Positions 14,683 to 63,842 are shown, numbered from the stretch's first letter. The stretch: 64,000 nt of DNA from an uncultured virus (IMG/VR IMGVR_UViG_2049941000_000847) (IMGVR_UViG_2049941000_000847), one strand, 5' to 3'. A program made the numbers and translations. The notes: generated from the letters alone by a model not told the origin.

Positions 14683-16317
14683 ATGAATAAAGCATTTGTT
14701 GAGTTCATTTACAGACTTGAAAACATGTCTGGTGAACGGGAACTCTGCGAAGCGGTTCTGCGGGGGTATCTCGCGTGCCATCCGATTTTCGAGGATGCCG
14801 AAGGACGTGCCGCCAGCAAAACAAGAGACTTTATCAGAACGAGAATCGGTGAAGACCGTTCGAATGATGTTGCAAGAGACCAGAACGGAGAACCTATACT
14901 GACGGCAAGTGGAAAAGAACAAACGGTTGTTGATTATTTTGANNNNNNNNNNNNNNNNNNNNNNNNNNNNNNNNNNNNNNNNNNNNNNNNNNNNNNNNNN
15001 NNNNNNNNNNNNNNNNNNNNNNNNNNNNNNNNNNNNNNNNNNNNNNNNNNNNNNNNNNNNNNNNNNNNNNNNNNNNNNNNNNNNNNNNNNNNNNNNNNNN
15101 NNNNNNNNNNNNNNNNNNNNNNNNNNNNNNNNNNNNNNNNNNNNNNNNNNNNNNNNNNNNNNNNNNNNNNNNNNNNNNNNNNNNNNNNNNNNNNNNNNNN
15201 NNNNNNNNNNNNNNNNNNNNNNNNNNNNNNNNNNNNNNNNNNNNNNNNNNNNNNNNNNNNNNNNNNNNNNNNNNNNNNNNNNNNNNNNNNNNNNNNNNNN
15301 NNNNNNNNNNNNNNNNNNNNNNNNNNNNNNNNNNNNNNNNNNNNNNNNNNNNNNNNNNNNNNNNNNNNNNNNNNNNNNNNNNNNNNNNNNNNNNNNNNNN
15401 NNNNNNNNNNNNNNNNNNNNNNNNNNNNNNNNNNNNNNNNNNNNNNNNNNNNNNNNNNNNNNNNNNNNNNNNNNNNNNNNNNNNNNNNNNNNNNNNNNNN
15501 NNNNNNNNNNNNNNNNNNNNNNNNNNNNNNNNNNNNNNNNNNNNNNNNNNNNNNNNNNNNNNNNNNNNNNNNNNNNNNNNNNNNNNNNNNNNNNNNNNNN
15601 NNNNNNNNNNNNNNNNNNNNNNNNNNNNNNNNNNNNNNNNNNNNNNNNNNNNNNNNNNNNNNNNNNNNNNNNNNNNNNNNNNNNNNNNNNNNNNNNNNNN
15701 NNNNNNNNNNNNNNNNNNNNNNNNNNNNNNNNNNNNNNNNNNNNNNNNNNNNNNNNNNNNNNNNNNNNNNNNNNNNNNNNNNNNNNNNNNNNNNNNNNNN
15801 NNNNNNNNNNNNNNNNNNNNNNNNNNNNNNNNNNNNNNNNNNNNNNNNNNNNNNNNNNNNGAATCTCCCATGGAAAGGTGAGGAGTGGTTTGATAATGTC
15901 GGCAGCTTCCATGAAGGATACGCCACGGTCGAACTTGATAACAAATACAACTGGATCGACAAGGACGGGAATTTCCTATGGAAAGGCGAGAAGTGGTTTG
16001 ATTATGCCGGCATCTTCGACGAAGGACCTGCCATGGTCAAACTGAACGGAAAATATAACTTCATCGACAAGGACGGGGATCTCCTGTGGAAAGGCGAGAA
16101 GTGGTTTGATGGTGCCAACAACTTCGACGAAGGATATGCCCGGGTCGAACTTGATAACAAATACAACTGGATCGACAAAGACGGAAATCTCCTATGGAAA
16201 GGTGAGGAGTGGTTTGACAATGCCAGCTTCTTCTTCGATAAAGGATATGCCGAGGGCAGCCTGAACGGAAAATGGTATAAGATCGACAAAGAAGGAAATT
16301 TGCACGATATAACATAG
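14683..16317 (+). CDS. Leader-family (type B) WG-repeat protein, paralog 1 (middle in a 918-nt gap)
   Basis: MNKAFVEFIYRLENMSGERELCEAVLRGYLACHPIFED; C-terminal 36-aa repeats; TATAAACTA at 14649. Confidence 0.8.
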   Translation: MNKAFVEFIYRLENMSGERELCEAVLRGYLACHPIFEDAEGRAASKTRDFIRTRIGEDRSNDVARDQNGEPILTASGKEQTVVDYFXXXXXXXXXXXXXXXXXXXXXXXXXXXXXXXXXXXXXXXXXXXXXXXXXXXXXXXXXXXXXXXXXXXXXXXXXXXXXXXXXXXXXXXXXXXXXXXXXXXXXXXXXXXXXXXXXXXXXXXXXXXXXXXXXXXXXXXXXXXXXXXXXXXXXXXXXXXXXXXXXXXXXXXXXXXXXXXXXXXXXXXXXXXXXXXXXXXXXXXXXXXXXXXXXXXXXXXXXXXXXXXXXXXXXXXXXXXXXXXXXXXXXXXXXXXXXXXXXXXXXXXXXXXXXXXXXXXXXXXXXXXXXXXXXXXXXXXXXXXXXXXXXXXNLPWKGEEWFDNVGSFHEGYATVELDNKYNWIDKDGNFLWKGEKWFDYAGIFDEGPAMVKLNGKYNFIDKDGDLLWKGEKWFDGANNFDEGYARVELDNKYNWIDKDGNLLWKGEEWFDNASFFFDKGYAEGSLNGKWYKIDKEGNLHDIT

Positions 16318-16346
16318 AATTAGCTGCCTTTCACATAACAATTCAA

Positions 16347-16373
16347 AACGGGCACCAACCAGTGCCCATTTTT
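16347..16373 (+). terminator. Terminator hairpin
   Basis: GGGCAC-CAACCA-GTGCCC followed by a T-run. Confidence 0.6.
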
Positions 16374-16414
16374 GTTATAAACTTACACTGTACGATGCTT
16401 CCAGAATTTGATTC

Positions 16415-17870
16415 ATGAACGAATCGGAAAAAGAATGGGACTTCATTAACTATCTTCGGAGGGCTGGTTTTCCCGGCCCGGTTTGCGAAAGCATAAACGA
16501 TATCAGAAAGGTTGTTTTCGAGGGAGAAGATGATTACGCAAAACCGGAACATACACCAGACCGTTCCACGGAGAACGGCGATAAAATAGACTGGAGTTCT
16601 TTCCCGGATCCTGACATCCAGAAAGGCATCGATCTGATGCGAAAGATAAACGAACACGGCTACGAGGCATACATAGTCGGTGGATGCGTGCGCGACATCG
16701 TCAACGGTAGCAAGGACGTCCATGACGTGGACATCGCAACCAATATGCCAATCGCAGAACTGAAGCGTGCGTTCAACACGGCCGATAACGGAGGTGAGAA
16801 GCATGGCACGATTCTCGTGGAAAACGATGGTGTCATGTTCGAGGTAACTCAATTCAGAACAGAAACCGGTTATAGCGACGGCCGCCATCCTGACAATGTA
16901 TCGTGGACCGATTCGTTCGAGGACGATACCAGGCGCCGAGACTTCACAATAAACGCAATGGGAATCGACGCGGACGGGAATGTTATCGACTACAACGGCG
17001 GAGTGGCGGACCTGCGAAACAGGATATTGCGAACCGTCGGAGACCCGNNNNNNNNNNNNNNNNNNNNNNNNNNNNNNNNNNNNNNNNNNNNNNNNNNNNN
17101 NNNCCGAAGACGCCCTACGCATAATCCGTGCAATGCGCTTTGCCGCAAGGTTTGACATGACAATAGCGGAAGATACCCTGAAGGGGATGATCGCTTGCAA
17201 GGGGCAGTTGAACAGGATATCGATGGAACGCGTTCGAGACGAGCTGATAAAAACCGCCGAGTACGGAGCAAAGCAGTTCGCCTCTGTCGTGTCGCTTATG
17301 AACGATACTGGGTGTGGCGAGATCATAGATCCAAACAGCTTCATCGACTGGGAAAAAGCTAGAGACCTGGCAGATACGAGAGCAACAGATCCGCTGTTCG
17401 CCGAGATGGACAAAGATGTCATTGTATCGCTGGCGTTGCTGTTCTACGGAACGAACGATGCGAAGGCTGCAATGCAGTATTTCCGGTGCACGGTCGAGCA
17501 GATAAGGAGCGTCGGTTTCATTTACCGGAATCTGGATAATTATCGCCGGCTCGGAGAGCTCGATCCGATCGGTGCTATAAATGTTGTGAAGAACAAGGAC
17601 TTCGACCGGTTGCGGGAAGTCAATCATGCCATATACGGCGACGACGGTGATTATGCGGATCTTATCCCAACTGTCCGGATGTTGATTCGTGAAGCCGTAC
17701 CAAGGTTCAACAGCATATCCAGGATGATGAGGGAGATCGGAATTCAACCAGGTCCAAATTATGGATCCGTGCTGGAAAAGGTCGCAAATAGAATGTGCGA
17801 AATGTACATCTCAGGTGTTGAGCCGACCGATGAGCAGATCATGGAAATGCTCTTGGAATATGCCCAATAA
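16415..17870 (+). CDS. cca: Leader-family (type A) class II CCA-adding tRNA nucleotidyltransferase/poly(A) polymerase (split by gap)
   Basis: Leader WDFINYLRRAGFPGPVCESINDIRKVVFEG; AYIVGGCVRD, DVDIAT, EVTQFRTE..YSDGRHPD, RRDFTINAM, EDALRIIRAMRFAARF, ERVRDEL. Confidence 0.9.
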
Positions 17871-17907: not shown

Positions 17908-19938
17908 GTGAAATCCTTGTCAAAAACGGAAATTGAGTTTCTCGACTCTTTGAAGAAAATCGGCATCTCGAAGTCTCTGTGCGAGTCGGTGAACGGCATA
18001 CGGAGAGCCGTTTTCGAAAACGATACGGTTGGAACGCATGGAGTGCTTATGTCCGACGAAGACATCGCCGAGCAGTATAGCGGCTGGTGGATCGGTAGCA
18101 TCAAAATGTATAAAGACGGTGATGTCGGGCTTGAGTTCTACTATCCAAACGCCGACGATATCGACTATGATTCCTATACGTACATGATTATCGGGAAGCA
18201 TCATGACGGCCGGTATTATGACAAAAACGATAACTGGACACCGGAAAGCGAGTTCAAGCGCATAGTGGATGTGGTCAAGCTGGCAAAGAATGTGTTGAAG
18301 CCTGAAGAAGATATCGTTTTCAACAACAAGGAAGAGTTCGATAACTGGGTAGAAGAGAACAGCAGAAAGGTCGGCGACGTTTTCGAATCCATGGAAGACA
18401 CCGACTACGAGAACCCCCTGAGCATGTACGGTGTTCCGATGTCCGAACGGGAAAACATTAAAAAGCAGACGGACGCATTCAGTTCTTGGATGTGTCGCAA
18501 CAACAAGTATGGGATTCTCGCCAACGACTATTTCAAAGGCGGTGAAACACATGATGAAGTTATTGTTGAACTCGCTAAAGAAGCATCAAGAGATTCTGGT
18601 ATGGAAATATCATTTGATGCCGCGAAGCGTGTCGTGGATTCAATTTTCGGCTATGTCAGCAAGGCGATGGAGATGAAACACAAGGAGGATTTGACTATGC
18701 CCCGTAATGAGGCTGAAATTAGAGAAAACTCCGATGGCTATCTTTTCCTTGAATCCATCTGCTCCATATGCGACAAGGCCGAAGCGAGCGCCATCATAAC
18801 CGTGTTCAATGCGGTGTACCCGGAACACGCGATAAGCGAGTCGACAAACAACATACGGAAGGAGGTTTTCGAAGGTGCCGGTGATATAACTTGTGGTTTT
18901 GATCCGGAATCTGCTATCAGAGATTATGAAGATTACTGCGATGAACAGAGCATGATTAGTGAATGCAGAGATGAAATTGCGAAAAAATACTTCAAGGAAT
19001 TGTGCGATCATATCGATGATCTTGAAAATGAGGCATGTTATGTATGGTCGAGATTTAAAAATGCAATACGCGATGGCGTTCAAGGCGAAGAATTAAAGGA
19101 AATCGAGAAAGAGTATCATCGGTATGCTACCGAGATGAAGGTGTCGCTAAATGAACTAAAAGACAAAGTAAACGAAAAGATTATAGAACTAAATAAATCC
19201 AATCCAGATGAGTACCCGCTGGTATTGATTGAATCTCGCTTAGGTGAAATGTTCGCCCCTGCGATGAAAAAGGTAAAGAACGTTGCTCTCGCTGGTGCGC
19301 TGGCGGGCAACATGGCGCTTGCCCAGCCAAGCGACAACGCGGAATACGACCAGACCGCCGACAACACCGACGCTCCCGCCTACTATGAAGACGGTTGGGA
19401 CAACATGACCCAAGACAAGTTGAACGCGCTCAACAGGGAAGTCGGTGCAAAGGTGACGGTGGTCGGAGACAGCCCGATCGCAGACATATCCGACATGGGT
19501 TATCTTGAACGGCAGAAGAAGGACGTAGACAAATACAAATACGTTGACATGGACGAACTTTTCTCCAACGAGGTCGGGCGCGTCTCCTCTGACCATGACA
19601 GAGACTTCGTGATGGGGTTCGGTCACGGGGAATCCGGTGACATACATGAAGCCGCCAGACTTGCCGCTGCCGCCGCGGAAAAGGATTTCCATGAGGTCAT
19701 GTCGGACGAGATGGAGTTGATAAATTACGCAAACGCACACTCTTCCAATGTCGACCTCCCTCTCAGCGAAAACGATGAATTGTACGACGTGAAGTACTTC
19801 TACGACGAAGAATCGCAGGTGTATCACGCGTTCGTGATGACGGTCGAGCGCGGCTATACAGAATGGGCCCTCGACCACAACATGGAAAGTTCTTCAAGCG
19901 CCTCTGAGCGCATGAACAGGATCTCGAAGATCAGGTAG
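17908..19938 (+). CDS. Leader-family (type A) multi-module acidic protein with internal leader copies
   Basis: N-terminal EIEFLDSLKKIGISKSLCESVNGIRRAVFEN; internal FLESICS..AISESTNNIRKEVFEG; internal signal-like MKKVKNVALAGALAGNMALA. Confidence 0.8.
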   Translation: MKSLSKTEIEFLDSLKKIGISKSLCESVNGIRRAVFENDTVGTHGVLMSDEDIAEQYSGWWIGSIKMYKDGDVGLEFYYPNADDIDYDSYTYMIIGKHHDGRYYDKNDNWTPESEFKRIVDVVKLAKNVLKPEEDIVFNNKEEFDNWVEENSRKVGDVFESMEDTDYENPLSMYGVPMSERENIKKQTDAFSSWMCRNNKYGILANDYFKGGETHDEVIVELAKEASRDSGMEISFDAAKRVVDSIFGYVSKAMEMKHKEDLTMPRNEAEIRENSDGYLFLESICSICDKAEASAIITVFNAVYPEHAISESTNNIRKEVFEGAGDITCGFDPESAIRDYEDYCDEQSMISECRDEIAKKYFKELCDHIDDLENEACYVWSRFKNAIRDGVQGEELKEIEKEYHRYATEMKVSLNELKDKVNEKIIELNKSNPDEYPLVLIESRLGEMFAPAMKKVKNVALAGALAGNMALAQPSDNAEYDQTADNTDAPAYYEDGWDNMTQDKLNALNREVGAKVTVVGDSPIADISDMGYLERQKKDVDKYKYVDMDELFSNEVGRVSSDHDRDFVMGFGHGESGDIHEAARLAAAAAEKDFHEVMSDEMELINYANAHSSNVDLPLSENDELYDVKYFYDEESQVYHAFVMTVERGYTEWALDHNMESSSSASERMNRISKIR

Positions 19939-20556: not shown

Positions 20557-20606
20557 ATTTTTCGCTGAGCGAATAGGTGTGCCAATAGATAAACTATATT
20601 ATAGAC

Positions 20607-21191
20607 ATGAACGGCGGCAAGATGAGAAAACGACGATCAACTGCTCCAGAAACCGGCAAGACGAAGACTAAGCCTCATGTGACGATAGAGAAGACCGACA
20701 CGATGATGGTCGAGATTCCGCTTTGGTTGATAGGCGAGGTGAACGACGACAGCGTAAAGGAGTTGATCGCGCAGATAGACCAGATCAATTCCAGCGTGAA
20801 GCCAGAGAATTTGAAGAACACGTACATCACGCTGAACATTTCGTCCGAGGGCGGGGACGTCTATTCCGGGTTCGCATTGATAGACTCCATCAAGAACAGC
20901 CAGGTGATTGTGCATACTCATATCGCGTCGGTAGCGATGTCCATGGCGGCTGCCATATTCATGGCAGGCACTATTCGCACGTGTTCAAAGTGGGCGCAGA
21001 TGATGATACACCACTTCTCGGTCGGGGTCGCGGAGACTCCTCCGAAGAACGTGCTCATAAGCGGGAATGGAATGCTTGCGCTGGAAAAGCACTACGAGGC
21101 GATGTTCAAGCCTTTGAAGCTGGACGAAAACGACAAGTACTTGTACGCAAACGACCTGAAGCGGTTGAAGTGGGTTCAGAAGATCATATAG
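20607..21191 (+). CDS. ClpP-like serine peptidase
   Basis: LIGEV, ISSEGGDVYSGFALID, AMSMAAAIF (catalytic Ser), MMIHH (catalytic His), DKYL. Confidence 0.85.
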   Translation: MNGGKMRKRRSTAPETGKTKTKPHVTIEKTDTMMVEIPLWLIGEVNDDSVKELIAQIDQINSSVKPENLKNTYITLNISSEGGDVYSGFALIDSIKNSQVIVHTHIASVAMSMAAAIFMAGTIRTCSKWAQMMIHHFSVGVAETPPKNVLISGNGMLALEKHYEAMFKPLKLDENDKYLYANDLKRLKWVQKII

Positions 21192-22457: not shown

Positions 22458-24087
22458 ATGAATAAAGCATTTNNNNNNNNNNNNNNNNNNNNNNNNNNNN
22501 NNNNNNNNNNNNNNNNNNNNNNNNNNNNNNNNNNNNNNNNNNNNNNNNNNNNNNNNNNNNNNNNNNNNNNNNNNNNNNNNNNNNNNNNNCGTTTTGCGTG
22601 GATATTTAGCCTGCCATCCGATTTTCGAGGATGCCGAAGGTCGTGCTGCCAGCAAAACAAGAGACTTTATCAGGACTAGAATCGGCGAAGACCGTTCCAG
22701 TGAGATAGCTAGGGACGAACGTGGGAAGCCTATACTGACGGCAAGTGGAAAAGAACAAACGGTTGTTGATTATTTTGAACGCCAGATCCGCGACATGTTC
22801 TTCCATAATGAATACGCCAACATCAAATTTGAACCGGGCGTTGCCAGGATCATGTTCGATGATATGCGGATTCAGCAGGAAAACTACGATGTCAGAAGAA
22901 TAGAGACGCTAAAGGGGATCCTAAAAATCATCAGTAGTGCCCATGCAGATGAATATGATGCTAATCTCAATGGCATGTCGTTTGAACAACTCAAAGATCG
23001 CTTTGGCGAAAACATGGCGGCCGCGTCCGAAGCCGATTATGAAAGAGTCAGCTCCGCGACATACACCAAGAATGATTCATACAAAATCGTAGAGATACAT
23101 TCATTCTACGAAGCCAAGAAGTATTACAAATACACCAATCCAAACAGCAGGTGGTGTTTGACTCACATGGAAAACATGTGGGATACATATACTGGGAATG
23201 GTGGAAACAAGGTCTATTTCGTCCTCAAGGACGGGTTCGAAGATATGAAACCGGTCAAGGGGGAGAATTGCCCTCTTGACGAATACGGATTATCAATGAT
23301 ATGCATCATTGTGACAAACGATATCGGTGATGAGGACAGACCAATGCTGTGTACCTGCACATGCAGATGGAATCACGATAATGGTGGGTCTGACCAAGTC
23401 ATGAACGTCGAGCAGATCTCAAACGTAATCGGCGAATCGTTCTATAACGCGTTCAAGCCGTTCTCGTTGGAAGAACTGCATGCCAAGGGGATTTATACTT
23501 TCAGAGAGAAGCTTGAAAAGTATAATGAGACACATGACATAAGTTTGTTCGATTATGTTGCCTACGACTTCTACGACGGATATGCCGAGGTCAAACTGAA
23601 CGGAAAATGGAACTGGATCGACAAAGACGGGAATCTCCTATGGAAAGGCGAGAAGTGGTTTGATGAGGTCGGCACCTTCAATGAAGGATATGCCAAGGTC
23701 AATCTGAACGGAAAATGGAACTTCATAGACAAGGACGGGAATCTCATATGGAAGGGAGAGGAGCGGTTTGATTATGTCTACAACTTCCATGAAGGATATG
23801 CCGTGGTAAAACTTAACGAAAAAGGATGGAACTTCATCGACAAGGACGGTAATCTCCTGTGGAAAGGTGGGGGGATGCGGTTTGATCATGTTTGGAGCTT
23901 CAAAGAAGGATATGCCAAGGTCGATCTGAACGGAAAATGGAACTTCATAGATAAGGACGGGAATCTACTATGGAAAGGTGATGAGTGGTTTGATGAGGTT
24001 GACGCCTTCTATAAAGGATATGCCAAGGTCAGCCTGAACGGAAAATGGACCTTCATCGACAAGGAAGGAAAACTGCACGACAGCTGA
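22458..24087 (+). CDS. Leader-family (type B) WG-repeat protein, paralog 2 (gap in leader)
   Basis: MNKAF..LRGYLACHPIFED; middle domain YKIVEIHSF..WCLTH..WDTY..LDEYGLSM..CRWNH; about five 36-aa GYAxVxLNGKWNFIDKDGNLLWKG repeats. Confidence 0.85.
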
Positions 24088-28176: not shown

Positions 28177-28662
28177 ATGAACTACAAAACCGACACCCAC
28201 AAGGGATCGTACAACGTTCTCCACAAGGAGAAGTACCTTGGGAATCGTCCCACTATATACAAGTCAATGTGGGAAGTCCACGTTTTTCATGCGCTAGACG
28301 TTAACCCGAACGTGCTAAAATGGGGATATGAGTGCATCGAAATACACTACATGAACCCGGTGCTGCAGAAGTGGGCAACGTATTACCCGGACATATTCTG
28401 CATAGTTAAAACGGAGTCAGGCAGGACGGTACAATATCTGCTCGAGATAAAGCCAGCCAAGTTCTGTGGAGTGCCCAAGAAGCCTACCATGAAAAGAAGC
28501 CCCGAGCTCTTCAACAAGCACATGAAAACCTACAAGGCCGCATGTCTTGACTTCATGGTGAACTCGGCAAAATGGGAAGCCGCCGAACTTTGGTGCAAGC
28601 AGAACAACGTCGTCTGGAAGATACTGAACGAGAACAACACGGGTTCTCTGTTTGGGCATTAA
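28177..28662 (+). CDS. T4 gp4-like head completion nuclease (TnsA-like PD-(D/E)xK)
   Basis: KYLG..IYKSMWE, WGYE, YYPD, LEIKP, VNSAKWEAA..WC. Confidence 0.88.
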   Translation: MNYKTDTHKGSYNVLHKEKYLGNRPTIYKSMWEVHVFHALDVNPNVLKWGYECIEIHYMNPVLQKWATYYPDIFCIVKTESGRTVQYLLEIKPAKFCGVPKKPTMKRSPELFNKHMKTYKAACLDFMVNSAKWEAAELWCKQNNVVWKILNENNTGSLFGH

Positions 28663-28704: not shown

Positions 28705-29903
28705 ATGAATAAGCTGTTCGTAGATTTCATAAACAGACTCGAAAAGATGTCTGGAAATCGCGATCTCTGCGAAGCTGTCCTGCAGGGATATTTAGCCTGC
28801 CATCCGATCATGGAGGACGCGGCCAAAAGAGCACAGCATTCCACAAGAGAATTCATCAGGAGCAGATTCGGAGAATCAATCGACGCACAGAGTCTTGAGC
28901 TGAAGATCAGAAACGAATTCTTCCACAACGACTATATCAACAAGAAGTTCGAGCCGGGTGTCGCGAGAATCGCGTTTGACAACCTGGATTTCCAAGGAAA
29001 TCGTCAAGACAACATAGGCATTGCAACTCTCAAGAACATCCTGAAGATCATAAGCAGTTCCCATGCAGATGAATACAACAAAGACTTGAACGGCCTTTCG
29101 TTCGAACAGCTCAAGACCAGATTCGGAAAGGATGTGGCGAGGGAATCCGAAGAGACATATAACAGGATCAACACCACGCAATACGAGAAGAACAATTCAT
29201 ACCGCATAGTCGAAATACACTCTTTCGAAGAAGCCCAGGAATATGCGAAGTGGACGGAACCGTACACATGGTGCATCACAGAGAGCGAAGATGCATGGGA
29301 CACATATTCGGGAAACGGGAGAAACCGGGCGTATTTCGTGTTGAAGGACGGATTTGAGAAGATGAAACCAATCGAAGGGGAAGGACACCCCCTCGACGAA
29401 TACGGCCTGTCAATGTTCGGTATCTTCGTCACTAACGATGCGAACGACGACAACCGACCTGCATTGTGTTCCTGTGCCTGCAGGTGGAACCACCATGACG
29501 ACGGCGGCAAGGGCGATACAATCATGGATGTTGAACAGATCTCCAATGTAATCGGTCAGTCGTTTTATGACGCATTTAAACCGTTCTCGTTGGAAGAATT
29601 GCATTCCAGGGGTATTTATACTTTCAGAGAGAAGCTTGAAAAGTATAACGAGACGCATGACAGAAGTTTGTTCGATTATGTCAGTAACTTCTATGAAGGA
29701 TATGCCCGGGTCGAACTGAACGGAGAATACAACTGGATTGACAAAGACGGAAATCTCCTATGGAAAGGGGAGGAGTGGTTTGATAGTGTCGACGTCTTCA
29801 GCGAAGGATATGCCGTGGTAAAACTGAACGGAAAATATAACTTCATCGATAAAGACGGGAATTTCTTGTGGAATGGTGAGAAGTGGGTTGATTATGCATG
29901 TGA
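28705..29903 (+). CDS. Leader-family (type B) WG-repeat protein, paralog 3 (likely continues at ~30910-31423)
   Basis: MNKLFVDFINRLEKMSGNRDLCEAVLQGYLACHPIMED; same middle domain; last ~44 nt before the gap are identical to 30866-30909. Confidence 0.85.
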
Positions 29904-29913
29904 NNNNNNNNNN

Positions 29914-40952: not shown

Positions 40953-41082
40953 GATACCACCAAGCCGTGCTAACGCTTATAGTTTATAATTATGGGGATA
41001 TGGAATTCCCGCCAAACGAGCAACACAAAACCCAAATAAACCTATATTACATTCGCGATAGCCGCAAAAACGGAGAACACAC

Positions 41083-43032: not shown

Positions 43033-43042
43033 NNNNNNNNNN

Positions 43043-43187
43043 GATTGACTCGTTGAACCGAGGGGGACTCGGGGATAGCCTGTGTAAACTTAGGGAGAAA
43101 GTAGACAGCGAAAGCTGTCAAGGATTACCCCCAAATGATCAGGAAGGCCCGGTCGAAACGCCTGACGGCGTTTCGGACCGGCTAGGT
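43043..43187 (+). ncRNA. Putative TnpB omega/reRNA scaffold and element right end
   Basis: CCGAG-GGGGA-CTCGG-GGATAGCCT, GACAGC-GAAA-GCTGTC hairpin (43104-43119), CAGGAA, long hairpin 43149-43181; typical position at the tnpB 3' end. Confidence 0.55.
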
Positions 43188-43259
43188 TATAAACTTAGTT
43201 TGACCGATATGGTGGAACTAGGTATATAAGTCCCAACTATTCTCGATTGGTGGGCCAAC

Positions 43260-44900
43260 ATGTTCATAGAAAAAGAGCCAAAACAACCAGAAACACTCGC
43301 CGCGAAGATACTTTCTCGCGCACGTGACTATGACCTGGCCAACCCGAAGGGCCCGGTATTCGACCGCCTTTTCAATCGGCATACAACAGAACGGGAAATA
43401 GACAAGTCCAACAACATCGTTGGTCAAGGCGTTTCCCAGATATCGTTCCCGAACGGCATGTCTCCCGACGGGTTCAGCTCTTTCTCTCCGACAATAGGAT
43501 ACAACTCCGTAAACGTTGACGAACACAGGGTTTTCAACCAGACGGCTGAAAACCAGGTCACGCAGTTCTGGATGAAGAACCGCGAGCGCGTGCAGAAGTA
43601 CTACCGGATAGCCTCTAGAGCCGAAGTCGGCGAAGCCATCGACCAGATCTGCGACGAAGCAGTTTACGAAGACGGCGACGGCAAGATCTGCGAACTCAGT
43701 ATAGACCTTGATGCCCAGATAGGCGATGTTGTAAAGAACAGAATGTACCGCATTTTCCGCCAAGAAGTGCTCAACAAGATAATGAACTTCAGATACGACG
43801 GCTGGAACCTGATGAGAACGCTTCTCATCGAAGGACGCATCTTCTTCGAAGTAGTGTATTCCAAGGAAAAGAACCAGATCGTAGGCGTCAACCTCCTTCC
43901 GTCGCAGAACATGATCATCGTAGTGCAGGACGGCATCATAATCGGATACCGCCAGATGCTGGAAGGATCGTACAGCTCCGTCACCGGAGCAGGCATGAAG
44001 AACTACGTCGACTTCAGCCCGAACCAGATACTTTACGGCGACCTCAACCTTTTCGGACCTGGTGGCATAAACGACCCTAGATCTCCGCTCGAAGTTGCCG
44101 TCAAGCCGTTCAACCAGATCAACGCGATCGAAGACGCGGTCACCATGTACCGCATCCAGTGGGGCTCGGAAAAGCTGGTGTTCAAGATCGACACCGGCAC
44201 GATGCCGAAGCCGAAGGCCGAAGCTCACATCAAGGAAGTCGCCAAGCAGCTGTCCAGACGCGTGGACTACAACTCCGCGACCGGCGAAGTCTCCAACTAC
44301 GGCCGAGTGATCGGTCTTTCCGAGCACATATTCCTTTCCGTGAACTCCAACAACAGGAATTCCAGCGTGGAAAGGCTGCAGGGAGGGGAAAAACTAGGCG
44401 ACATCGACGACCTCAAGTACTTCAAAAGAAACCTCGTGAACGCCATGAAGGTTCCTCCTGGGCGCATTACCGCTCTCGCCGGCGACGGAACGAACTACGC
44501 GAACGGCAAGTTCGGTGAAGTCACGCAGGCGGAAGTCGCTTTTGCCAGACTGGTGTACAGATATCAGGTTCCGATGAAGCAGATACTTTCCAGGCTTTTC
44601 GTCATGGTTTTGGACACCATGAACGACATAACCCCCGACGTCAAGAAAGAAGAGTATTTTACCGTGAACTTCAACAAGGGCAACAGCTTCCAGCGGAACA
44701 TGGACAGCGAAATCCTCCAGAAGGACATCGGCATATTCAACTCCGTCACCAGCAGCATCAAGAGCCCCTCCAATCCCGACGGGGTGCTCTCCAAGGACTA
44801 CGTGCTTCGTCGCATACTTCACCTTTCAGACGTGGAAATAAGCAAGATGAACGAGGATCTTGCCGAAATCGACACGCCGGAAGAAGGCGGGGAAGAGTAG
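43260..44900 (+). CDS. T4 gp20-like portal protein
   Basis: YRIASRAEVGEAIDQICDEA, IEGRIFF, KPFNQINAIEDAVTMYRI, FKIDTGTMPKPKAE, GDIDDLKYFKRNL..AMKVP. Confidence 0.93.
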   Translation: MFIEKEPKQPETLAAKILSRARDYDLANPKGPVFDRLFNRHTTEREIDKSNNIVGQGVSQISFPNGMSPDGFSSFSPTIGYNSVNVDEHRVFNQTAENQVTQFWMKNRERVQKYYRIASRAEVGEAIDQICDEAVYEDGDGKICELSIDLDAQIGDVVKNRMYRIFRQEVLNKIMNFRYDGWNLMRTLLIEGRIFFEVVYSKEKNQIVGVNLLPSQNMIIVVQDGIIIGYRQMLEGSYSSVTGAGMKNYVDFSPNQILYGDLNLFGPGGINDPRSPLEVAVKPFNQINAIEDAVTMYRIQWGSEKLVFKIDTGTMPKPKAEAHIKEVAKQLSRRVDYNSATGEVSNYGRVIGLSEHIFLSVNSNNRNSSVERLQGGEKLGDIDDLKYFKRNLVNAMKVPPGRITALAGDGTNYANGKFGEVTQAEVAFARLVYRYQVPMKQILSRLFVMVLDTMNDITPDVKKEEYFTVNFNKGNSFQRNMDSEILQKDIGIFNSVTSSIKSPSNPDGVLSKDYVLRRILHLSDVEISKMNEDLAEIDTPEEGGEE

Positions 44901-44969
44901 GTAGGCGATTTTTCGGTGTAACTGGTTATAAACTATATACAAAAGAACGTAATAGCGGTATAACTGTCC

Positions 44970-45182
44970 ATGAACGACGCTCCATACACCGAATCCGTCA
45001 AACTTGCCGGGTCGCAGAATGTGAATAGAGCGGTGGAGAAAATGATCACGTATCTCGTGAACGGGAACGACAACGACATGAGGAACTGCATAACCGAATT
45101 GTCCGAGTCGATCGTTCAGGAAAACGAGGATAGAATACTGCAGATGTTGTTCGAGAACAAGGGTGGTGATACAGATGTCTGA
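44970..45182 (+). CDS. Small prohead core protein candidate (gp67/gp68 position)
   Basis: Between portal and protease; late motif at 44927. Confidence 0.55.
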   Translation: MNDAPYTESVKLAGSQNVNRAVEKMITYLVNGNDNDMRNCITELSESIVQENEDRILQMLFENKGGDTDV

Positions 45183-45897
45183 AACTATCATAGATCCTGG
45201 CAAGAAGGCCAAGTTTTTGTATGAGTCCGTCCTAGATTCCGACGGCAACGGCAAGAAGCGTCTGAAGATTTACGGCACCGCCGTGGTATGCGACGTGGTC
45301 GGCATCAATGGCCGTTCATATCCGAAGCGCATTCTAGAACCAGAAGTCAAACGCTTCAACGAAGAATTCATCAAGACCGGACGCGCCGCCGCCCAGCTCA
45401 ACCACCCGAGAGTGGACCAGGACGGCAACGGCAAGGACTACTCCGTCTACGAAATGAACCTCATGAAGACCTGCGCCCTCATCGAAGACATGCACTTCGA
45501 AGGGAACAATCTCATGTGCAAGATGGTCGTCGTGGAAGGACACCCGGCCGGAGACGCTCTCACGGCTCTGCTCAAGGCCGGATACGTTCCCGGTTACTCT
45601 CTCCGTGGATCCGGTTCGGTCGTGCAGTCCACCAACGGGTTTGAAATCACTGACGACTACCGCCTCATCACCGTCGACGTTGTAGGCAACCCCTCGTTCG
45701 ACGCAAAGGCGCTGGTCACTCCGATGTACGAATCCATCGACGGTGGTGAAAAGGAAAAAGCTCTCATGGAATCCATCACGCAGATACAGCGCGAAATCAT
45801 CGCAAGTCATTCGTCCAAGCCTCTCATGGCCGGCGACAAGGACTACAACGTGGACACGCTCGCGTCGGTGCTGATGTCGAACATCCACCTGTTCTAA
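45175..45897 (+). CDS. T4 gp21-like prohead protease
   Basis: NGRSYP..L..EV, LNHP (His), HPAG, GYSLRGSGSV (Ser), DYRLITVDVVGNPS. Confidence 0.92.
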   Translation: MSETIIDPGKKAKFLYESVLDSDGNGKKRLKIYGTAVVCDVVGINGRSYPKRILEPEVKRFNEEFIKTGRAAAQLNHPRVDQDGNGKDYSVYEMNLMKTCALIEDMHFEGNNLMCKMVVVEGHPAGDALTALLKAGYVPGYSLRGSGSVVQSTNGFEITDDYRLITVDVVGNPSFDAKALVTPMYESIDGGEKEKALMESITQIQREIIASHSSKPLMAGDKDYNVDTLASVLMSNIHLF

Positions 45898-45912: not shown

Positions 45913-46884
45913 ATGCAGCAGTTCTTCCTATCAAATGTTTTGGACGAGAAGACGATGAAGAAGCTCTCGAAGAGCGACATCACCGCCATCGAAGAAAGCG
46001 TGAACGGAAACGTCCAGAAGATATCCGATACGATAACCGAGGCCCAGGAAAAGCGGTTCGACAAGATGGTGAACGACCTCACCGAGAAGTTCGAAAGCGA
46101 AGTGTCCAATGCCGTCAACGAATGCGTCCAGAACCAGGTGGGCGGGAAGATAAACGAAAAGCTGCTCAATGTAGTAAAGCAGATAGCGAACCTTCTTGAA
46201 TCGGCCGGAATACACACAACTGAAGAAACGAAGAAGCTCGCGAAGCGTATCCAGGAAGTGAACGACAAACTGAAAAGCGTGTACGAAGAACGCGACAAGC
46301 TGCTCTTGGAAGCCGACAAGGCCAAGAAGAACGAATTCATCTACAGCAGCCTTCGCGGTATGAACCCGAGTCTCATCGACGCGGTCATCAAGCACTACGA
46401 AAACGTTCCGTTCGGCGAAATAGACGAAGAAGAACTCCAGGCAATAGTAAACAATCCTGATATACTCGCCACTCTCGCCGAGATAGGCGCCAGCGAATAC
46501 GACCCGGAAATGGAAAAGATCGAGGATGTCGTAAACGCCATATCGAACGACAACAAGACCATGATACCCGGCGTTCCTCTGGAAAAGAACGATTCCAAGA
46601 TGGAATCCGCCGGCGAAAATGAAACTCCCACGAACTTCTTTGAATCTCGTGGCGTTTCCGACTCGCTCCGCAAGATGCGCGCGTTCGGCGGCAAGTATCG
46701 CAATCCAAACGTGAGCAACGAAGATCTTATGAAGACCATCACTCTCACGGAAGACATTAACGCCGGGGTCGTGCCGGACAATGGCATAAGCGACGCGGAT
46801 GTCGAGAACGCTGTCAAGAAGCTAGGGGAATTCGTCACGTGGGGGAGCGATGTTGGAGAATCGTGGGAAAACAATTCGAAGTGA
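45913..46884 (+). CDS. gp22-like prohead scaffolding/core protein
   Basis: Directly after the protease; acidic coiled coil with several hydrophobic-x-E sites (KFES, LLES, LLEA, FFES). Confidence 0.7.
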   Translation: MQQFFLSNVLDEKTMKKLSKSDITAIEESVNGNVQKISDTITEAQEKRFDKMVNDLTEKFESEVSNAVNECVQNQVGGKINEKLLNVVKQIANLLESAGIHTTEETKKLAKRIQEVNDKLKSVYEERDKLLLEADKAKKNEFIYSSLRGMNPSLIDAVIKHYENVPFGEIDEEELQAIVNNPDILATLAEIGASEYDPEMEKIEDVVNAISNDNKTMIPGVPLEKNDSKMESAGENETPTNFFESRGVSDSLRKMRAFGGKYRNPNVSNEDLMKTITLTEDINAGVVPDNGISDADVENAVKKLGEFVTWGSDVGESWENNSK

Positions 46885-49241: not shown

Positions 49242-50276
49242 CTACTGTTTTTCGTCCACCATAAGAGCGCCGGCGTAGTCTCTTGTCTTTTCAAGGTCTT
49301 TGTTGTATCTTTCCTTGAGGTCCGCGATTTCTTTCAGTTTTTCCGGTGACATGTCTCCTGTATCAACATTGTTCTGGTCGGCGTTGGCGGTTCCTTCGAC
49401 ACCAGCTTCGGCGTCCTTGGCTTCTTTTTCGCCTTCTTCGACGGCTTTTCTAAGACTCTCGTTGTCGTTCTTCAATGCGTTGATGTTGCTCAGGTGCACA
49501 TCAAACTCTTCCGGCTTTGTATTCTGTCCAAGATCCATGGTAACGAGCCCATTCATGCCGGTATCTGTGTTGTTGACGGCATCGGCTTCCATTATGGCGG
49601 CGATGGCGGCGTTTATGGCATCGGTGAGTTCCTGGTCGTCTTCATTTCCTGTGCCGATCATGTCCATGAAGTTTTTCATGTGCTTCTGAAGCCACTCTTC
49701 CCTGTCTTCGCAATGATGATGATGACCGTGATGATGGTGTTCGCCGTCGTGGCAGCAGTTGTCTCCACCGCAGCACTTCTTCGCCTTGGTCTTCCCTATG
49801 TAAACGTCGTTCTTCTTGCCGTTGTTTGTGATGTAGTTGTTCACGATAACCTTCGCACCCTTCGTGAGCGCGTCGATTATGTCGGCGTTTTCGTCCGTTT
49901 TCAGGGATTTTCCGAGGAAATCGATTTCCTCGTCGTAGTCGATTTCGTTATCGTCGTCAACGGGTCTCTTCACGGATTCTCCGGCCATTCCACCGCCGAC
50001 GCTGCCGTCGCAGCTACCGAATCCACCGGCCATGCCACCGGCTCCCATTGCCCCGAATCCAAGCGGAGTGGCGGGACCGTACNNNNNNNNNNAGTACACG
50101 AGCGGAGGCAGGGAATACAAGGGAATGTCAGTCATAGACATGTTCGAGACCATCAAGGGATGGGCGACGTGCTTCGAGAGCATTTGCTCGACGTTCTCGG
50201 CNNNNNNNNNNTCAAGAATGTCTCCGGGATCGCCTGGCGTATGCGTTTTAGCAATCATTCTATCTTTCTTCGACAT
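49242..50276 (-). CDS. Acidic protein with His/Cys cluster and two internal leader-like helices (interrupted by gaps and a misplaced fragment at 50094-50201)
   Basis: EIDFLGKSLKTDENADIIDALTKG; KKCCGGDNCCHDGEHHHHGHHHHC; NFMDMIG..ELTDAINAAIAAIMEA. Confidence 0.65.
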   Translation of the reverse strand: MSKKDRMIAKTHTPGDPGDILXXXXAENVEQMLSKHVAHPLMVSNMSMTDIPLYSLPPLVYXXXXYGPATPLGFGAMGAGGMAGGFGSCDGSVGGGMAGESVKRPVDDDNEIDYDEEIDFLGKSLKTDENADIIDALTKGAKVIVNNYITNNGKKNDVYIGKTKAKKCCGGDNCCHDGEHHHHGHHHHCEDREEWLQKHMKNFMDMIGTGNEDDQELTDAINAAIAAIMEADAVNNTDTGMNGLVTMDLGQNTKPEEFDVHLSNINALKNDNESLRKAVEEGEKEAKDAEAGVEGTANADQNNVDTGDMSPEKLKEIADLKERYNKDLEKTRDYAGALMVDEKQ

Positions 50277-53736: not shown

Positions 53737-55513
53737 ATGTCTCAGAAGCTAAGCGTTATGGAAGGCATCGAACAGATGCAGAAGGACATGGCGATCGTGG
53801 AATCAATAGTTAACGACACCATTGGTGAACAGAAGGCTGTCGAGGCCGAACGTCAGGCAAGCTATTCCCCAGTCGATGAGGATAGTTGGACCTCCGTCGT
53901 GGTCTCTGACACCGATGACAAGCAGCCCCGGCTCTATACGACACCCGTCGAAGAGCTCACGGACGAAGAAAAGAGCCTTGTCATCAGCGACTTCGCCAAG
54001 ATGATTCGTGACTTGCACAAGGAAACGATCACCCTTGCCGACATCACACCGATTGCCACTATCATCAAGGACAACCGCGGTCTCAAGCAGAACATCGAAG
54101 AGTTCATCAAGGGTGCCATTCTGCAGTCCGCCGAAAACCAGGACAGCGCCAAGTACGCCAGAGCCGGCCAGTCGACCGGTCTCAACATGGTAGAAGGCAA
54201 GCCTGCTCCCACCGAAGCCGACGCGAAGGTTCCTTCGCCTGCCGCTGGTGCCGGTGCCGATGCTCTCGGTGCAGCTTCCATCGGCGCTCCTGAAGGCATG
54301 ACCGTCGAAACCCCCGTTCCCGCCGAAGCCGAACCCGTCGAAGAACCCGCTCCCGAAGTGGACCCCGACGCCGCCGACCTCGCTGCCGTTCCCGGCATTG
54401 ACGGTGGTTCCGATTTCGAAGAAGCCCCCATTACCGCTCTCGACGTTCCGGAAGCTCCTGCCGCCGAAGAAGAAGCTCCTGCCGAAGAAGCTCCCGTCGC
54501 CGACGAAGTCGCTCCTGTTGAAGAAGCCGCTCCTGTCGAAGAAGCTCCTGCCGAAGCCGAACCTGTTGAAGAACCAGCTCCTGTCGAAGAAGAAGCTCCG
54601 GTTGAAGAAAAGGCCGAAGTCTCCGAAGAAGTGAAGGAAGACGGTGAAGGCGACGAAGAAGAAAAGGTGGAAGAAGAAGACGATGAAGTATTCGAATCCA
54701 TCAAGGCCAAGATGAGCGCCGCCTGCAAGGGTGGTGCCTGCAAGAAGGCCAATTACGCTCCCGAAGCCGCCGAACGCGCTCTTCGCGCCCGTCTTGAAGC
54801 CATTGCTGCCGACTATCATCGCAAGGAAGAACGGAAGAAGCTCCTGGAATCCGCGATAAGCAAGGCCAAGAAGACCCTCCAGGAAGGCGTTGAAGACAAG
54901 AGACGCGCTCGTCTCGAAGCCGCCGTCGCCAAGGCCAAGGCTGCTCGCAAGGCCAAGGAAGATGCTGAAAAGATGGAATGCGAAAAGGCCGCCAAGAAGC
55001 AGGCCAAGCTCGACGCCGCGATCAAGGGTGCCAAGAAGGCAATCGCCAAGGAAAAGGGTGCCGAAATGGAAAAGTCCATCGCCGAAGCTCGCGAAGCCCA
55101 GGCAAAGCGTTCCGCCATCGCGGAAGCAATTGCCAAGGCCAAGCGTGCCGTGATGGAAGGTGAGGAAGATGGTGACATGCCCATGGACGAATGCCGTGGA
55201 AAGGGTTGCTTCAAGGGCAACAAGAACGAAGGTATCGTCGATGCGATCAAGGGCTTCCTCAGCAAGAAGGCCAAGACCGACGCCGTCGCCAACGTTCCCG
55301 GCATGCCCAAGTCCGGTCTTATCGGCGGTGGTGTCAAGGAGCTGAACGCCGACTACGTCAAGAAGGCTGAAGCCCTCAGAAAGGCCCGCATTGCCCAGGC
55401 CGTCGCAGACGCCAAGAGCAAGAAGTTCGAACTGGACCTCACCAAGCAGAAGCTGATGGAAGCCAATAAGAGATTCAATAAGGCTGTCGCCAAAAATCGC
55501 CTGGAGGGTCTCC
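53737..55513 (+). CDS. Ala/Glu/Pro/Lys-rich scaffold-like internal head protein (3' end in gap)
   Basis: PAEE/APVEE repeats, then Ala/Lys helices; repeated VMEG, IVES, VFES, RLEA, LLES, LQEG, LMEA sites; strongly biased codons; late motif at 53691. Confidence 0.7.
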
Positions 55514-55819
55514 ANNNNNNNNNNCACCACATACGCGATCGAGCGCGACATCGGTTTCGATTTTGTCATAACCACGAAGCCTGCTGCTCTCACCGGAAAG
55601 ATGTACGAGCTGTGCCTCGGAGAAGAGGACATCGTGCAGGCCGTCGCATACGGCGCTCTTCCGATCTGCGGAGTGGACGACCTCGAACCAGATGCCGAAC
55701 ACGTTTCCAAGGCGGCNNNNNNNNNNGAAGTCCGTCAAGGAACAGGAAGAACTTCTTAACAAGAAGGGTGAGATCCTTGGAGGCAACTCCTAGATCATAA
55801 TAAGCGGATAATCCTACAC

Positions 55820-55849: not shown

Positions 55850-55912
55850 TTTATCCACAAAAACCGTAACACGACCGGCCGAAAAATACTATATTATGCC
55901 TGAGGTGATAAA

Positions 55913-61531: not shown

Positions 61532-61543
61532 AGATGACAAAAC

Positions 61544-61725: not shown

Positions 61726-62184
61726 TGGGCTAACGTTTGGTGCGTCGACTACGGCCAAGGAAATCAGGAAGATGATCGAAGACAACATCGTCGCCGTGAG
61801 ATGGAACGAGAGCTACAACAANNNNNNNNNNCGGGCTCACGTTCGGTGCATCGACTACAGCCAAGGAAATCAGGAAAATGATCGAAGACAACATCGTCGC
61901 CGTGAGATGGAACGAGAGCTACAACAAGTATCGTTCACGTATCGAGATGCTCAACCTGAGCTCTCCCCAGCTTCTGTCGATGTACTTCGGNNNNNNNNNN
62001 CCGCATCGAGATGCTCAACCTGAGCTCTCCCCAGCTTCTGTCGATGTACTTCGGCGTGTTCCTCGGGAAGGAACTGTCTCTCGCCAGGAACGCTCTTGCA
62101 AAGGAGCTGAAGGCCCAGCAAGAAGCCAACGCCGGCGAAAAGGCGGACAACATCATCAAGTTCAACCCAAAACTTTCCAACTAA
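61726..62184 (+). CDS. C-terminal fragment(s) of a protein (probably the 58977 gene), with overlapping variant duplicates
   Basis: LTFGASTTAKEIRKMIEDNIVAVRWNESYNKYRSRIEMLNLSSPQLLSMYFGVFLG..KLSN* reconstructed across gaps. Confidence 0.5.
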
Positions 62185-62202
62185 CATCAACAAGGAGAAA
62201 CC

Positions 62203-62711
62203 ATGTTTCACGGAAAGAAGGTAAAGGTCGTCGGTTTTTACGGTCAGTCCGGTGCAGGCAAGACCACGATAATAAGAAACGTTCCGGACGAGATCGATGA
62301 AGTGGCCGTGACCAAGAACACCGGCATACTCAAGTACCTGTACGGAAAGAACAATTACTACGTCCATCCGAACGATTGCATAGACTCGTACTACCAGGAG
62401 ATGAAAAACTCTCCGGACGCCAACAAGAACGAGATCGCCAACTCCGTGATAGAGAAATACATCAGGTCGGCGTTCCAGCTGCTCAACGACTTCTCCACGG
62501 AGATCTACATGTTGAACAAGGAACTTGGCGAGAACTCCGCCGGCGTAATCCTCGTCGACAGCAGTCCGATCGACTACTACGCGATGCTTATGTGCGGTGT
62601 CAGCATGCTCAAGGACGAGTTCGGTGTCAACGAGCTTTCCTACGACATGAACCACCTCATCGAGCTGGCGAAGAAGACCGCGCTGACCACCACCGAAAAC
62701 TTCTTCGACTA
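62203..62711 (+). CDS. P-loop nucleotide kinase-like (AAA_28/dNMP kinase-like), 3' end at gap
   Basis: VGFYGQSGAGKTT, ILVDSSPIDYYA; AAGGAG RBS. Confidence 0.7.
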
Positions 62712-62854
62712 NNNNNNNNNNGATGTGTGGTGTCAGCATGCTGAAGGACGAGTTCGGCGTCAACGAGCTTTCATATGACATGAACCACCTCATAGAGCTG
62801 GCGAAGAAGACCGCGCTGACCACCACCGAAAACTTCTTCGACTANNNNNNNNNN

Positions 62855-62943
62855 TTCGGCTCCTCTGTCGCGACGGGTTCGACAACGCGTTCGATGACGG
62901 TTCTGTCGTTTTCAAGTCTGTTGATCTTGCGTCTCTTGGACAT
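62855..62943 (-). CDS. 5' part of a small basic protein whose 3' part lies at 61576-61695
   Basis: MSKRRKINRLENDRTVIERVVEPVATEEP overlaps VATEEPKVEKK..RFF across scaffold gaps. Confidence 0.5.
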
Positions 62944-63842
62944 TACTTACCTCGCTTCTGCTTCTGCCCCAGGAGAGGCATGATTTCCTTGATGTTGTTT
63001 CTGCCTTCGGCCTTCTTGACCATATCAAGCGCCTGATCATAGGTGAGATCCGTATCCTTCAGGTCGCCGTCTTCTCCCATGACGGAGTACTTCTTCTGGT
63101 CGCCGACGCTTTCCTGCTCGCCGTTTTCAGAGGCTTCTGCATCGTCTTCTTCGTCCTCAGAGGCAAATAGGTCTTCACCGGTTTCGTCGCGATACTCCAT
63201 TCCGGCGGTGTAGTAGTCTGGCATCTCGTAGATATGCCCCATGGCCGCCTTGATGGCCTTTTCCGGGTCCTTGGTCCGTTCAAGCTCGACCTTGAGACCC
63301 TTGGAAAGTTCTTCGATGATTTCGGTCTCTTCGACACCATGTTTGCCGGCGAGGCAATCGATTGTCTTGCATTCCTTGCCCTTTTCGAGGTCTTCTCCCT
63401 TGAGCTCCGCCTCTCCTTCTTCTTCCATCTCGTCGAGACGGTCGTAATAGTCGGGGAGTTCCATGAGGTGGTCGAGAGCGATGCGTTCGGATATCTTCTT
63501 GAGCTCGGTGTGCTCGAGTTCGACCTTCGATCCAATGTCGACCTGCTTCTGGATTTCTTCGACGGGAACGTTCCACTTCTTGGCAACGTCTTCCACGGTC
63601 TTGCCGTCGGCGCGACCACCCTTGAGGACATCTAATTCATTGTCCTTTTCCGTGGAAACTTCTTCCGTGTTTCCTCCCTTGATGACGTCAAGTGGGAGAA
63701 TGGTGGAGTCGACTTCGGATACGGAGAAATCGGCCGGCACGCTTTCAAGAAGAGAATAACCCTTTTCGATGGCTTCGATCAGGTATGAGTTGTTCTTCGT
63801 TTTCATGCCGTCCAGAAACGAAATAAAAGACTTTTTGTCCAT
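62943..63842 (-). CDS. Leader-family (type C) protein with two DUF5661-like repeats
   Basis: MDKKSFISFLDGMKTKNNSYLIEAIEKGYSLLES; GSKVELEH..IALDHLMELPDYY and GLKVELER..AMGHIYEMPDYY. Confidence 0.75.
   Translation of the reverse strand: MDKKSFISFLDGMKTKNNSYLIEAIEKGYSLLESVPADFSVSEVDSTILPLDVIKGGNTEEVSTEKDNELDVLKGGRADGKTVEDVAKKWNVPVEEIQKQVDIGSKVELEHTELKKISERIALDHLMELPDYYDRLDEMEEEGEAELKGEDLEKGKECKTIDCLAGKHGVEETEIIEELSKGLKVELERTKDPEKAIKAAMGHIYEMPDYYTAGMEYRDETGEDLFASEDEEDDAEASENGEQESVGDQKKYSVMGEDGDLKDTDLTYDQALDMVKKAEGRNNIKEIMPLLGQKQKRGK

Follow-up and report, generated by a model that had tools for sequence, protein, structure and literature searches.

Leader genes in the window

The subject of this analysis is a 64,000-nucleotide (nt) stretch of DNA from an uncultured virus (IMG/VR IMGVR_UViG_2049941000_000847), referred to below as the window, and a short N-terminal sequence, the leader, with which at least 13 of its genes open. 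Nine of these leaders are of type A, three of type B (one of them a fragment) and one of type C, and in all 13 copies the leader starts at residue 1-4. The window is a scaffolded assembly, broken by 23 runs of N of 10-918 nt each.

Two type B leaders and the type C leader translate as a preliminary description of this DNA had given them. The type B leaders, of 38 residues each, open WG-repeat proteins and read MNKAFVEFIYRLENMSGERELCEAVLRGYLACHPIFED at 14683..14796(+) (type B hidden Markov model (HMM) E 1.7e-31; hhalign to the A profile P 6.5e-5), in a gene interrupted by a 918-nt N run, and MNKLFVDFINRLEKMSGNRDLCEAVLQGYLACHPIMED at 28705..28818(+) (hhalign to the A profile P 4.7e-6), for which an AlphaFold2 model was obtained. 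The type C leader, of 34 residues, reads MDKKSFISFLDGMKTKNNSYLIEAIEKGYSLLES at 63741..63842(-) and opens a protein with two DUF5661 domains (DUF5661 E 3.1e-22; leader to the B profile by hhalign P 9.3e-5). A third type B leader had been proposed at 22458, and here only the ends could be verified. The fragment (22458..22632(+)) consists of MNKAF, a 117-nt N run (22473-22589) in which the middle is lost, and VLRGYLACHPIFED; the legible parts, the first five and last 14 residues, are in different frames, but the second part matches positions 25-42 of the type B HMM with E 5e-10.

The assembly has artefacts linked to repeats. At 1437-3170(-) a stretch of a RecA/UvsX-like gene is duplicated between 10-N gaps, and at 28705-31423(+) the open reading frames (ORFs) 28705 and 29873 are joined differently in the database protein P0047. 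Because of such artefacts, the number of B-family genes in the window is uncertain.

Seven type A leaders lie on the minus strand. That at 1175..1276(-), in which Ser replaces Cys22, was first found in this analysis (type A HMM E 6.1e-13). Alignment and the type A HMM placed the leaders at 6227..6328(-) and 6668..6769(-), those of a beta-solenoid protein (8799..8900(-)), an AAA_33 kinase with a phosphatase-like C-terminal part (9964..10068(-)) and a WG-repeat protein (10463..10564(-)), and, on the plus strand, the GTG-started leader of a 676-residue protein (17908..18018(+)). The leader at 7344..7445(-) belongs to a phosphatase-like protein (DSPc E 0.0022, under the Pfam cut-off), and that at 16415..16522(+) to an enzyme of the CCA-adding/poly(A) polymerase family (PolyA_pol E 3.8e-33, domain from residue 85), an intact 477-residue relative of which is encoded at a related locus (L004).

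The 17908 protein (17908-19938(+)) contains a second, degenerate leader at residues 279-326 (18742..18885(+); type A HMM domain E 0.0077). Its C-terminal 222 residues share 56% identity with the database protein P0033 (BLASTP 3e-75), in which this module lies directly behind a leader. The internal leader and the placement of the P0033 module make the 17908 protein look like two leader-cargo units fused.

The common spacing of the three types noted earlier holds in detail. F8/F9, L12/M13 and a hydrophobic-x-E motif at residues 21-23, counted in all 13 window copies, occupy the same absolute positions in A, B and C. Hydrophobic-x-E occurs again within residues 32-37 and this second motif ends at residue 34 in A, 37 in B and 33 in C. 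In the 11 window leaders that were aligned across the types, F8 and E23 are invariant (11/11), with L12 and C22 almost as constant.

The nine type A copies in the window share a mean identity of 60% at the protein level and 62% at the DNA level, and 336 of 579 codon pairs for identical residues (58%) use differing codons. The type A leader is therefore conserved at the protein level. The same figure rules out both a recombination scar or recent recombination and an RNA or DNA element as the source of the likeness.

Relationship of the leader types

For a more sensitive comparison, deeper profiles were built from database relatives, comprising 44 non-redundant type A, five type B and two type C sequences. 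With hhalign, A against B gave a score of 29.1 (P 1.8e-6), with residues 1-26 aligned, and none of 200 column shuffles scored as high. B against C gave 21.2 (P 1.5e-4) over 27 columns, with one of 200 column shuffles as high. A against C scored 9.4 and was not significant, as 54 of 200 column shuffles did as well.

The real N-termini of 30 other window genes served as controls. Against the A profile these scored 5.0-11.7, while two B leaders scored 22.8 and 27.4; against the B profile they scored 5.2-12.6, while the C leader scored 22.3. An ordinary HMM built from eight type A leaders, searched against 1137 six-frame ORFs, gave no significant match to either variant (B, E 0.16 and 4.8; C, E 77). 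In the reverse direction, the six best non-B matches of the type B HMM in the window were all type A leaders (E 0.013-2.3), matched at their N-termini and up to HMM position 25.

Taken together, the profile-profile, control and reverse HMM results support type B as a diverged homologue of type A across helix 1 and into the beginning of helix 2 (see below), and they support, less firmly, a tie of type C to the leader family through B. Direct homology between A and C found no support in either the hhalign comparison or the type A HMM. The preliminary description had proposed a single diverged family to be checked by profile-profile alignment of the leader types; the A-B link and, with less confidence, the B-C link came out as significant, but the A-C link did not.

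Predicted fold

Structure prediction with AlphaFold2 was carried out on types A and B. The type A model (36 sequences) had a mean predicted local distance difference test (pLDDT) score of 83.6, with 92, 97 and 95 for the first three 10-residue blocks and values above 90 over residues 1-30, and contained helices at residues 3-14 and 19-33. The type B model (five sequences; mean pLDDT 72.5; first three blocks 83, 91 and 86) contained helices at 3-16 and 19-32, followed by a break at H-P-I and a third helix from residue 36. Both leaders are thus predicted to be helix-turn-helix hairpins whose helices coincide, in agreement with the two-helix fold that had been suggested for them. Among the residues of helix 2 that are polar and exposed in the prediction, E23, N26 and R29 are conserved.

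Searches of the Protein Data Bank (PDB) with the type A leader, by sequence profile (best E 0.33) and by fold with Foldseek (best E 3.3), gave no significant match, and such searches are uninformative for a 45-residue hairpin.

Cargo proteins

A search of 1.84 billion representative proteins with the type A profile gave 44 matches at E up to 1e-3, 31 of them at E up to 1e-10. Thirty-eight of the 44 were fetched; the other six, in which the matched stretches were short and multiple or else absent, were left aside. The leader begins no later than residue 9 in 36 of the 38; of the two exceptions, P0003 looks like an over-long start call and P0020 like a chimeric contig. The type A leader is strictly N-terminal.

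Thirty of the type A database proteins were scanned for the domains behind the leader, referred to here as the cargo. Eight had WG repeats, two were beta-solenoid proteins, and there was one each of an ABC-type ATPase, an AAA_33 kinase, a 2H-phosphoesterase-like protein (under the Pfam cut-off) and a Fib_succ_major protein; in the other 16 nothing was recognised. As judged from these domain assignments, type A is carried by many unrelated cargos.

The variants behave differently. The only proteins found with type B were four WG-repeat proteins with a whole 300-residue central region in common (4/4; search of lengths of 219-699 residues), and a search of the ESM Atlas with this central domain returned WG-repeat clusters only. 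For type C, the proteins found were two DUF5661 orthologues and no others (2/2; search of lengths of 164-524 residues). A leader shared by unrelated proteins was therefore seen for type A, but not for B or C. Since B is confined to one WG-repeat paralogue family and C to DUF5661 orthologues, their sequences indicate that both are family-specific N-termini rather than freely moving modules. The earlier view that the variant forms extend the family to WG-repeat, DUF5661-like and other proteins was correct for the first two kinds of protein and overstated beyond them, as each variant is confined to one protein family.

Several of the cargos fit a theme of RNA end repair. In the window these are the CCA-adding-type nucleotidyltransferase (16415-17870(+)), the AAA_33 kinase-phosphatase-like fusion (8971-10104(-)) and the phosphatase-like protein (6837-7445(-)), and in a relative the 2H-phosphoesterase-like protein (P0034).

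The phage

The genes of the window identify its source as a distant T4-like phage. A T4-type portal gene lies at 43260..44900(+) (Portal_T4 E 2.8e-74), its product sharing at most about 28% identity with that of any of 2575 matching deposited phages. Downstream of it is the gene for a gp21-type prohead protease (45163..45897(+); Peptidase_S77, PF03420, E 8.5e-27), which is proposed as the processing enzyme for the leaders. The protease aligns with T4 gp21 (PDB 5jbl) with E 1.4e-18, and the catalytic His, Ser and Asp motifs of the S77 family are present, as LNHP, SLRG and VD at aligned positions. The next gene (45913..46884(+)) is assigned as a putative scaffold by its position downstream of the protease, a family search having given no match. 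Further T4-like signs are a weak UvsY-like match (E 0.005, under the Pfam cut-off) and a weak baseplate-hub-like match. The window also codes for a collagen-repeat fibre and for a Fib_succ_major fibre (33594-36758).

A search for relatives based on the portal found no match in GTDB genomes or IMG/VR. Scans based on the leader, using a nine-sequence type A alignment, found one 9.7-kb IMG/VR contig and five metagenome contigs of 1.2-3.4 kb. A tblastn search of 50,697 phage records with a 40-residue type A leader found nothing, even with E values of up to 5 allowed. Close relatives are represented in public assemblies by contigs of 34-70 kb.

Two further genes were also noted: a TnpB/IS605 OrfB-type gene (42107-43048(+)) adjoins the portal gene, and a gene for a TnsA-like endonuclease (28177-28662(+)) lies between the fibre genes and the leader genes.

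Promoter-like motifs

The sequence TATAAACT occurs at 24 sites in the window against 0.81 expected. Of these sites, 23 lie 12-67 nt upstream of a start on the same strand and the remaining one faces the window end. One heads the head operon (44927..44934(+)); other examples are at 43188-43195(+) and 40981-40988(-). Besides the head operon, TATAAACT precedes the genes for the portal, the collagen fibre, a 1335-residue fibre-like protein and the baseplate region. The leader genes are served in the same way: 10 of the 13 have a site of their own, two lie directly behind another leader gene and one has a gap upstream. In related loci the motif is kept before the leader gene in four cases out of six. 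TATAAACT resembles the T4 late consensus, TATAAATA (PMC1524935), and probably serves this lineage as its counterpart of the T4 late promoter.

Several type A genes have in common a 5′ leader resembling ACGTATACCAAGCCCCACC between TATAAACT and the start codon. It was seen upstream of the genes starting at 6769, 8900 and 10564, and in the related loci L003 and L005. In view of this conservation, promoter, untranslated region and peptide leader may move as one cassette.

A second motif, ATACTATATTA, occurs at six sites against 0.25 expected (366-376(-), 5376-5386(-), 12149-12159(-), 14608-14618(-), 20591-20601(+) and 55886-55896(+)). It stands before helicase, Rad50-like, ClpP-like and recombination/UvsY-region genes and is a candidate for an early or middle promoter class. 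The ClpP-family protease gene (20607-21191(+)), which the window carries besides that of the S77 prohead protease, has this early-type motif upstream.

Protease motifs

The T4 prohead protease gp21 is reported to cut after Glu in the motif L/I-X-E (PMC9026906). Motifs of this type are present in the leaders at the two conserved positions given above, where the leaders may be cut.

The pattern hydrophobic-x-E-[SAG]-[IV], which describes the first site of the leader, was counted in the non-leader proteins of the window and compared with shuffled sequences. In the head operon (a 70-residue core-like protein encoded at 44970-45182, the protease, the scaffold and a transglycosylase) six occurrences were observed against 0.65 expected, and in an acidic protein encoded at 53737 five against 0.55. 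The figures were one against 3.2 in 13 other late proteins and five against 2.5 in the 15 remaining proteins. The three large fibre-like proteins had none, against about 1.5 expected. The prohead protease contains three hydrophobic-x-E-S-[IV] motifs, and the putative scaffold six of the shorter form, hydrophobic-x-E-[SAG], against 2.0 expected.

The acidic protein (53737-55800(+)) has 687 residues, is rich in Ala, Glu and Pro, and has the late-type motif upstream of its gene; hydrophobic-x-E-[SAG] occurs in it 14 times, where 4.9 would be expected. The protein may belong to the core or to the internal head proteins and be extensively processed.

Weaker matches elsewhere

Weaker matches to the leader had been suggested in the transglycosylase and at two places in the 49242 protein. 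That in the transglycosylase was not upheld: its N-terminus scored no higher than the controls (A, P 0.51; B, P 0.069), and the whole protein gave P 0.13-0.18 at that site. The protein does carry V-L-E-S-I at residues 22-26, but with profile scores within the control range it was rejected as a member of the leader family. In the 49242 protein, the C-like segment EIDFLGKSLKTDENADIIDALTKGAKVI (49845..49928(-); hhalign to the C profile P 7.6e-4, type C HMM E 0.049) is the top match to the C profile among 33 non-leader proteins, which is marginal after 33 tests, and the second segment (49572-49637) is weak (P 0.033).

Two head proteins also have segments weakly like the leaders. Residues 141-163 of the scaffold (EFIYSSLRGMNPSLIDAVIKHYE; 46330-46437(+)) resemble B and C with P 0.027-0.041 when a scaffold alignment is used and P 0.027-0.17 when the single sequence is compared with the B, C and B+C profiles, ranking third of 33 proteins against the combined B+C profile. 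Residues 199-215 of the protease, in its tail (ALMESITQIQREII; 45715-45897(+)), resemble helix 2 of type A (P 0.029). Neither likeness, at P of about 0.03 each, survives 33 tests, and the idea that the leader mimics a core protein is only a lead.

Proposed function of the leaders

The interpretation that we favour, and to which we would give about an even chance, is that A, B and C are divergent forms of a single N-terminal leader, about 35 residues long, and that this leader is a capsid-targeting propeptide like those of T4, but longer and folded. In the leader, a helix-turn-helix hairpin would lead into a flexible linker that is mostly acidic. Proteins bearing it would be produced late, alongside the head proteins; the cargo would become enclosed through binding of the hairpin to some component of the prohead core as this assembles; and the gp21-type protease would then cut after Glu23 (L-C/I-E | S/A), after the second hydrophobic-x-E near residue 34, or after both. 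The freed cargo would later be injected with the DNA. A targeting role is plausible from the promoter class, the protease motif and the T4 precedent, and from these we infer the steps of core binding, cleavage, packaging and injection.

Several points weigh against this interpretation. The motif count was defined after the leaders had been seen, and hydrophobic-x-E is common by chance; as the pattern was picked in this way, its enrichment is supportive and not decisive. The second Glu is followed by differing residues (S, G, A, E, N, T, D and, once, P), and not every copy looks cleavable there, and Glu-Ser/Ala is missing at the first site in two of the 44 type A leaders (P0039 and P0044). The first site lies inside predicted helix 2, where the protease would cut poorly if the hairpin did not unfold. 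The major capsid protein is outside the window, and its propeptide is therefore no calibrator for the cut site. The 'late' label of TATAAACT is an inference from the genes that it precedes, and WG repeats, beta-solenoids and Fib_succ_major (P0043) are kinds of cargo that also occur on virion exteriors. Finally, the lineage is known from its sequence alone, and the capsid targeting sequence (CTS) of T4 is 10-20 residues long and unstructured, whereas the leaders, at 34-38 residues, are two to three times as long and have a predicted hairpin. When the A, B and C profiles were compared with the N-termini of ipI, ipII and ipIII by hhalign, P was 0.056-0.78, within the control range for what is a very short region.

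The homology part of the interpretation has an alternative of its own, which seems rather unlikely: type C, and with less probability type B, would not be homologous to A and would simply be the N-terminus of its own protein family, resembling A by chance or by convergence on an amphipathic hairpin. For type C this would account for the insignificant comparison with A (54/200 shuffles; type A HMM E 77), and its profile holds only two sequences; the restriction of C to DUF5661 orthologues (2/2) and of B to one paralogue family (4/4) would also be expected. For type B it has to contend with the A-B comparison (P 1.8e-6), and for type C with a B-C match (P 1.5e-4; 1/200 shuffles) above all 30 control N-termini and with the presence of the same promoter motif upstream of the C gene. 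E23 stands at the identical absolute residue in all types, which also counts against this alternative.

Two other roles for the hairpin were considered. It could be an uncleaved anchor that fixes late proteins to another part of the virion (fibre, collar or capsid surface), like the conserved N-terminal anchors of exchangeable receptor-binding proteins. The leader is predicted to be a folded unit, its genes have a promoter-like motif in common with virion genes, and repeat or binding modules are frequent among the cargos (WG repeats in 8 of 30, beta-solenoid in two and Fib_succ_major in one, the last also found in the 33594-36758 fibre). CCA-adding, AAA_33 kinase, phosphatase-like and 2H-phosphoesterase-like cargos, however, act on intracellular substrates and make little sense outside the virion, and an anchor offers no explanation for a variable acidic linker or for two conserved hydrophobic-x-E motifs. 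The Glu motif is moreover enriched in the head operon and not in the fibre proteins (none in three, against about 1.5 expected). We consider an anchor improbable. The small chance that we allow to the other role is of the same order: here the hairpin would be a docking or oligomerisation module in the infected cell, bringing together WG-repeat proteins and late enzymes in one complex, such as an RNA-repair assembly. Helical hairpins are common interaction units, the conserved exposed residues E23, N26 and R29 of helix 2 suggest one common partner, and several cargos match the RNA-end-repair theme. Such docking would not explain the strict N-terminal position (36 of 38 proteins) or the sharing of the Glu motif by head-operon proteins, and no candidate hub protein was identified.

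The capsid-targeting interpretation can be taken further, though only as a speculation that we think has little chance of being right. The folded 35-residue hairpin, possibly derived from or mimicking a segment of the scaffold or core, would pre-load the capsid with an RNA-end-repair kit (CCA-adding enzyme, kinase-phosphatase and 2H phosphoesterase) and many WG-repeat proteins. Injected together with the DNA, the kit would counter tRNA-cleaving host defences before phage expression.

If capsid targeting is correct, T4-style head addressing reaches far beyond the T-even phages, in the form of a folded hairpin with two cut sites, and the list of leader genes is a direct catalogue of the proteins that an uncultured phage injects, including whole enzymes such as the CCA-adding enzyme. 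The variant forms would show how such an address diverges, with helix 1 and the first Glu site kept and helix 2 remodelled; since variants exist, a search that uses a single leader type will overlook some of the cargos. As a folded loading tag that can be transferred, the leader would also be a candidate tool for putting foreign proteins into phage capsids.

Comparison with known systems

Short modules that bring a protein into an assembling shell are familiar from other systems. The scaffolding protein of P22 has a C-terminal helix-turn-helix domain that binds the coat protein, and encapsulins take up their cargo by means of cargo-loading peptides. The leaders resemble these in being a short helical or peptide module for which such a role is proposed, a likeness of description only; the P22 and encapsulin modules differ in being C-terminal and in not being removed by a protease.

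Among the listed papers that use the phrase 'capsid targeting sequence', all concern T4, SPN3US, P1, P22 or applications, as judged from the titles and the starts of the abstracts, and none describes the present leader; other names for such leaders were not searched.

The closest parallel is the CTS of T4. In T-even phages diverse proteins are reported to have CTS-like starts, and in T4 N-terminal propeptides direct otherwise unrelated internal proteins to the core (PMC9026906, PMC3012670, PMC5694885); the 10-residue CTS of IPIII is described as sufficient for head targeting (PMC9026906). Like the CTS of IPI, IPII, IPIII and Alt, which is removed by gp21, the leaders are N-terminal, and type A likewise stands on otherwise unrelated proteins. 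Their hydrophobic-x-E is the gp21 cut motif (PMC9026906) and the phage of the window codes for a gp21 homologue. There is also a loose likeness between MKTYQEFIAE, with which ipII and ipIII start in the T4 record, and the M-N-K-x-F-V-E-F-I of type B. Apart from length and fold, the differences are that the leaders carry two conserved Glu motifs and the T4 CTS one, and that the leader cargos are mostly acidic enzymes and repeat proteins, in contrast to the small basic proteins of T4.

Giant phages provide a second precedent. The propeptides of the ejection proteins of SPN3US and phiKZ are described as longer than those of T4, with several protease motifs and cut sites each, and as conserved between diverged paralogues, the N-termini of gp53 and gp54 being identical (PMC5694885). 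Their gp21-related protease cuts after Glu (PMC5694885), which is also the cut proposed for the window leaders. They differ in that their propeptides reach 120 residues and more, that their motif has a small first residue (AXE, SXE), and that their processing was shown by mass spectrometry (PMC5694885), whereas the window leaders are known from genes alone, in a T4-type phage with an S77 protease. By analogy with these systems, the function proposed for the leaders appears to be a reasonable extension of a known mechanism.

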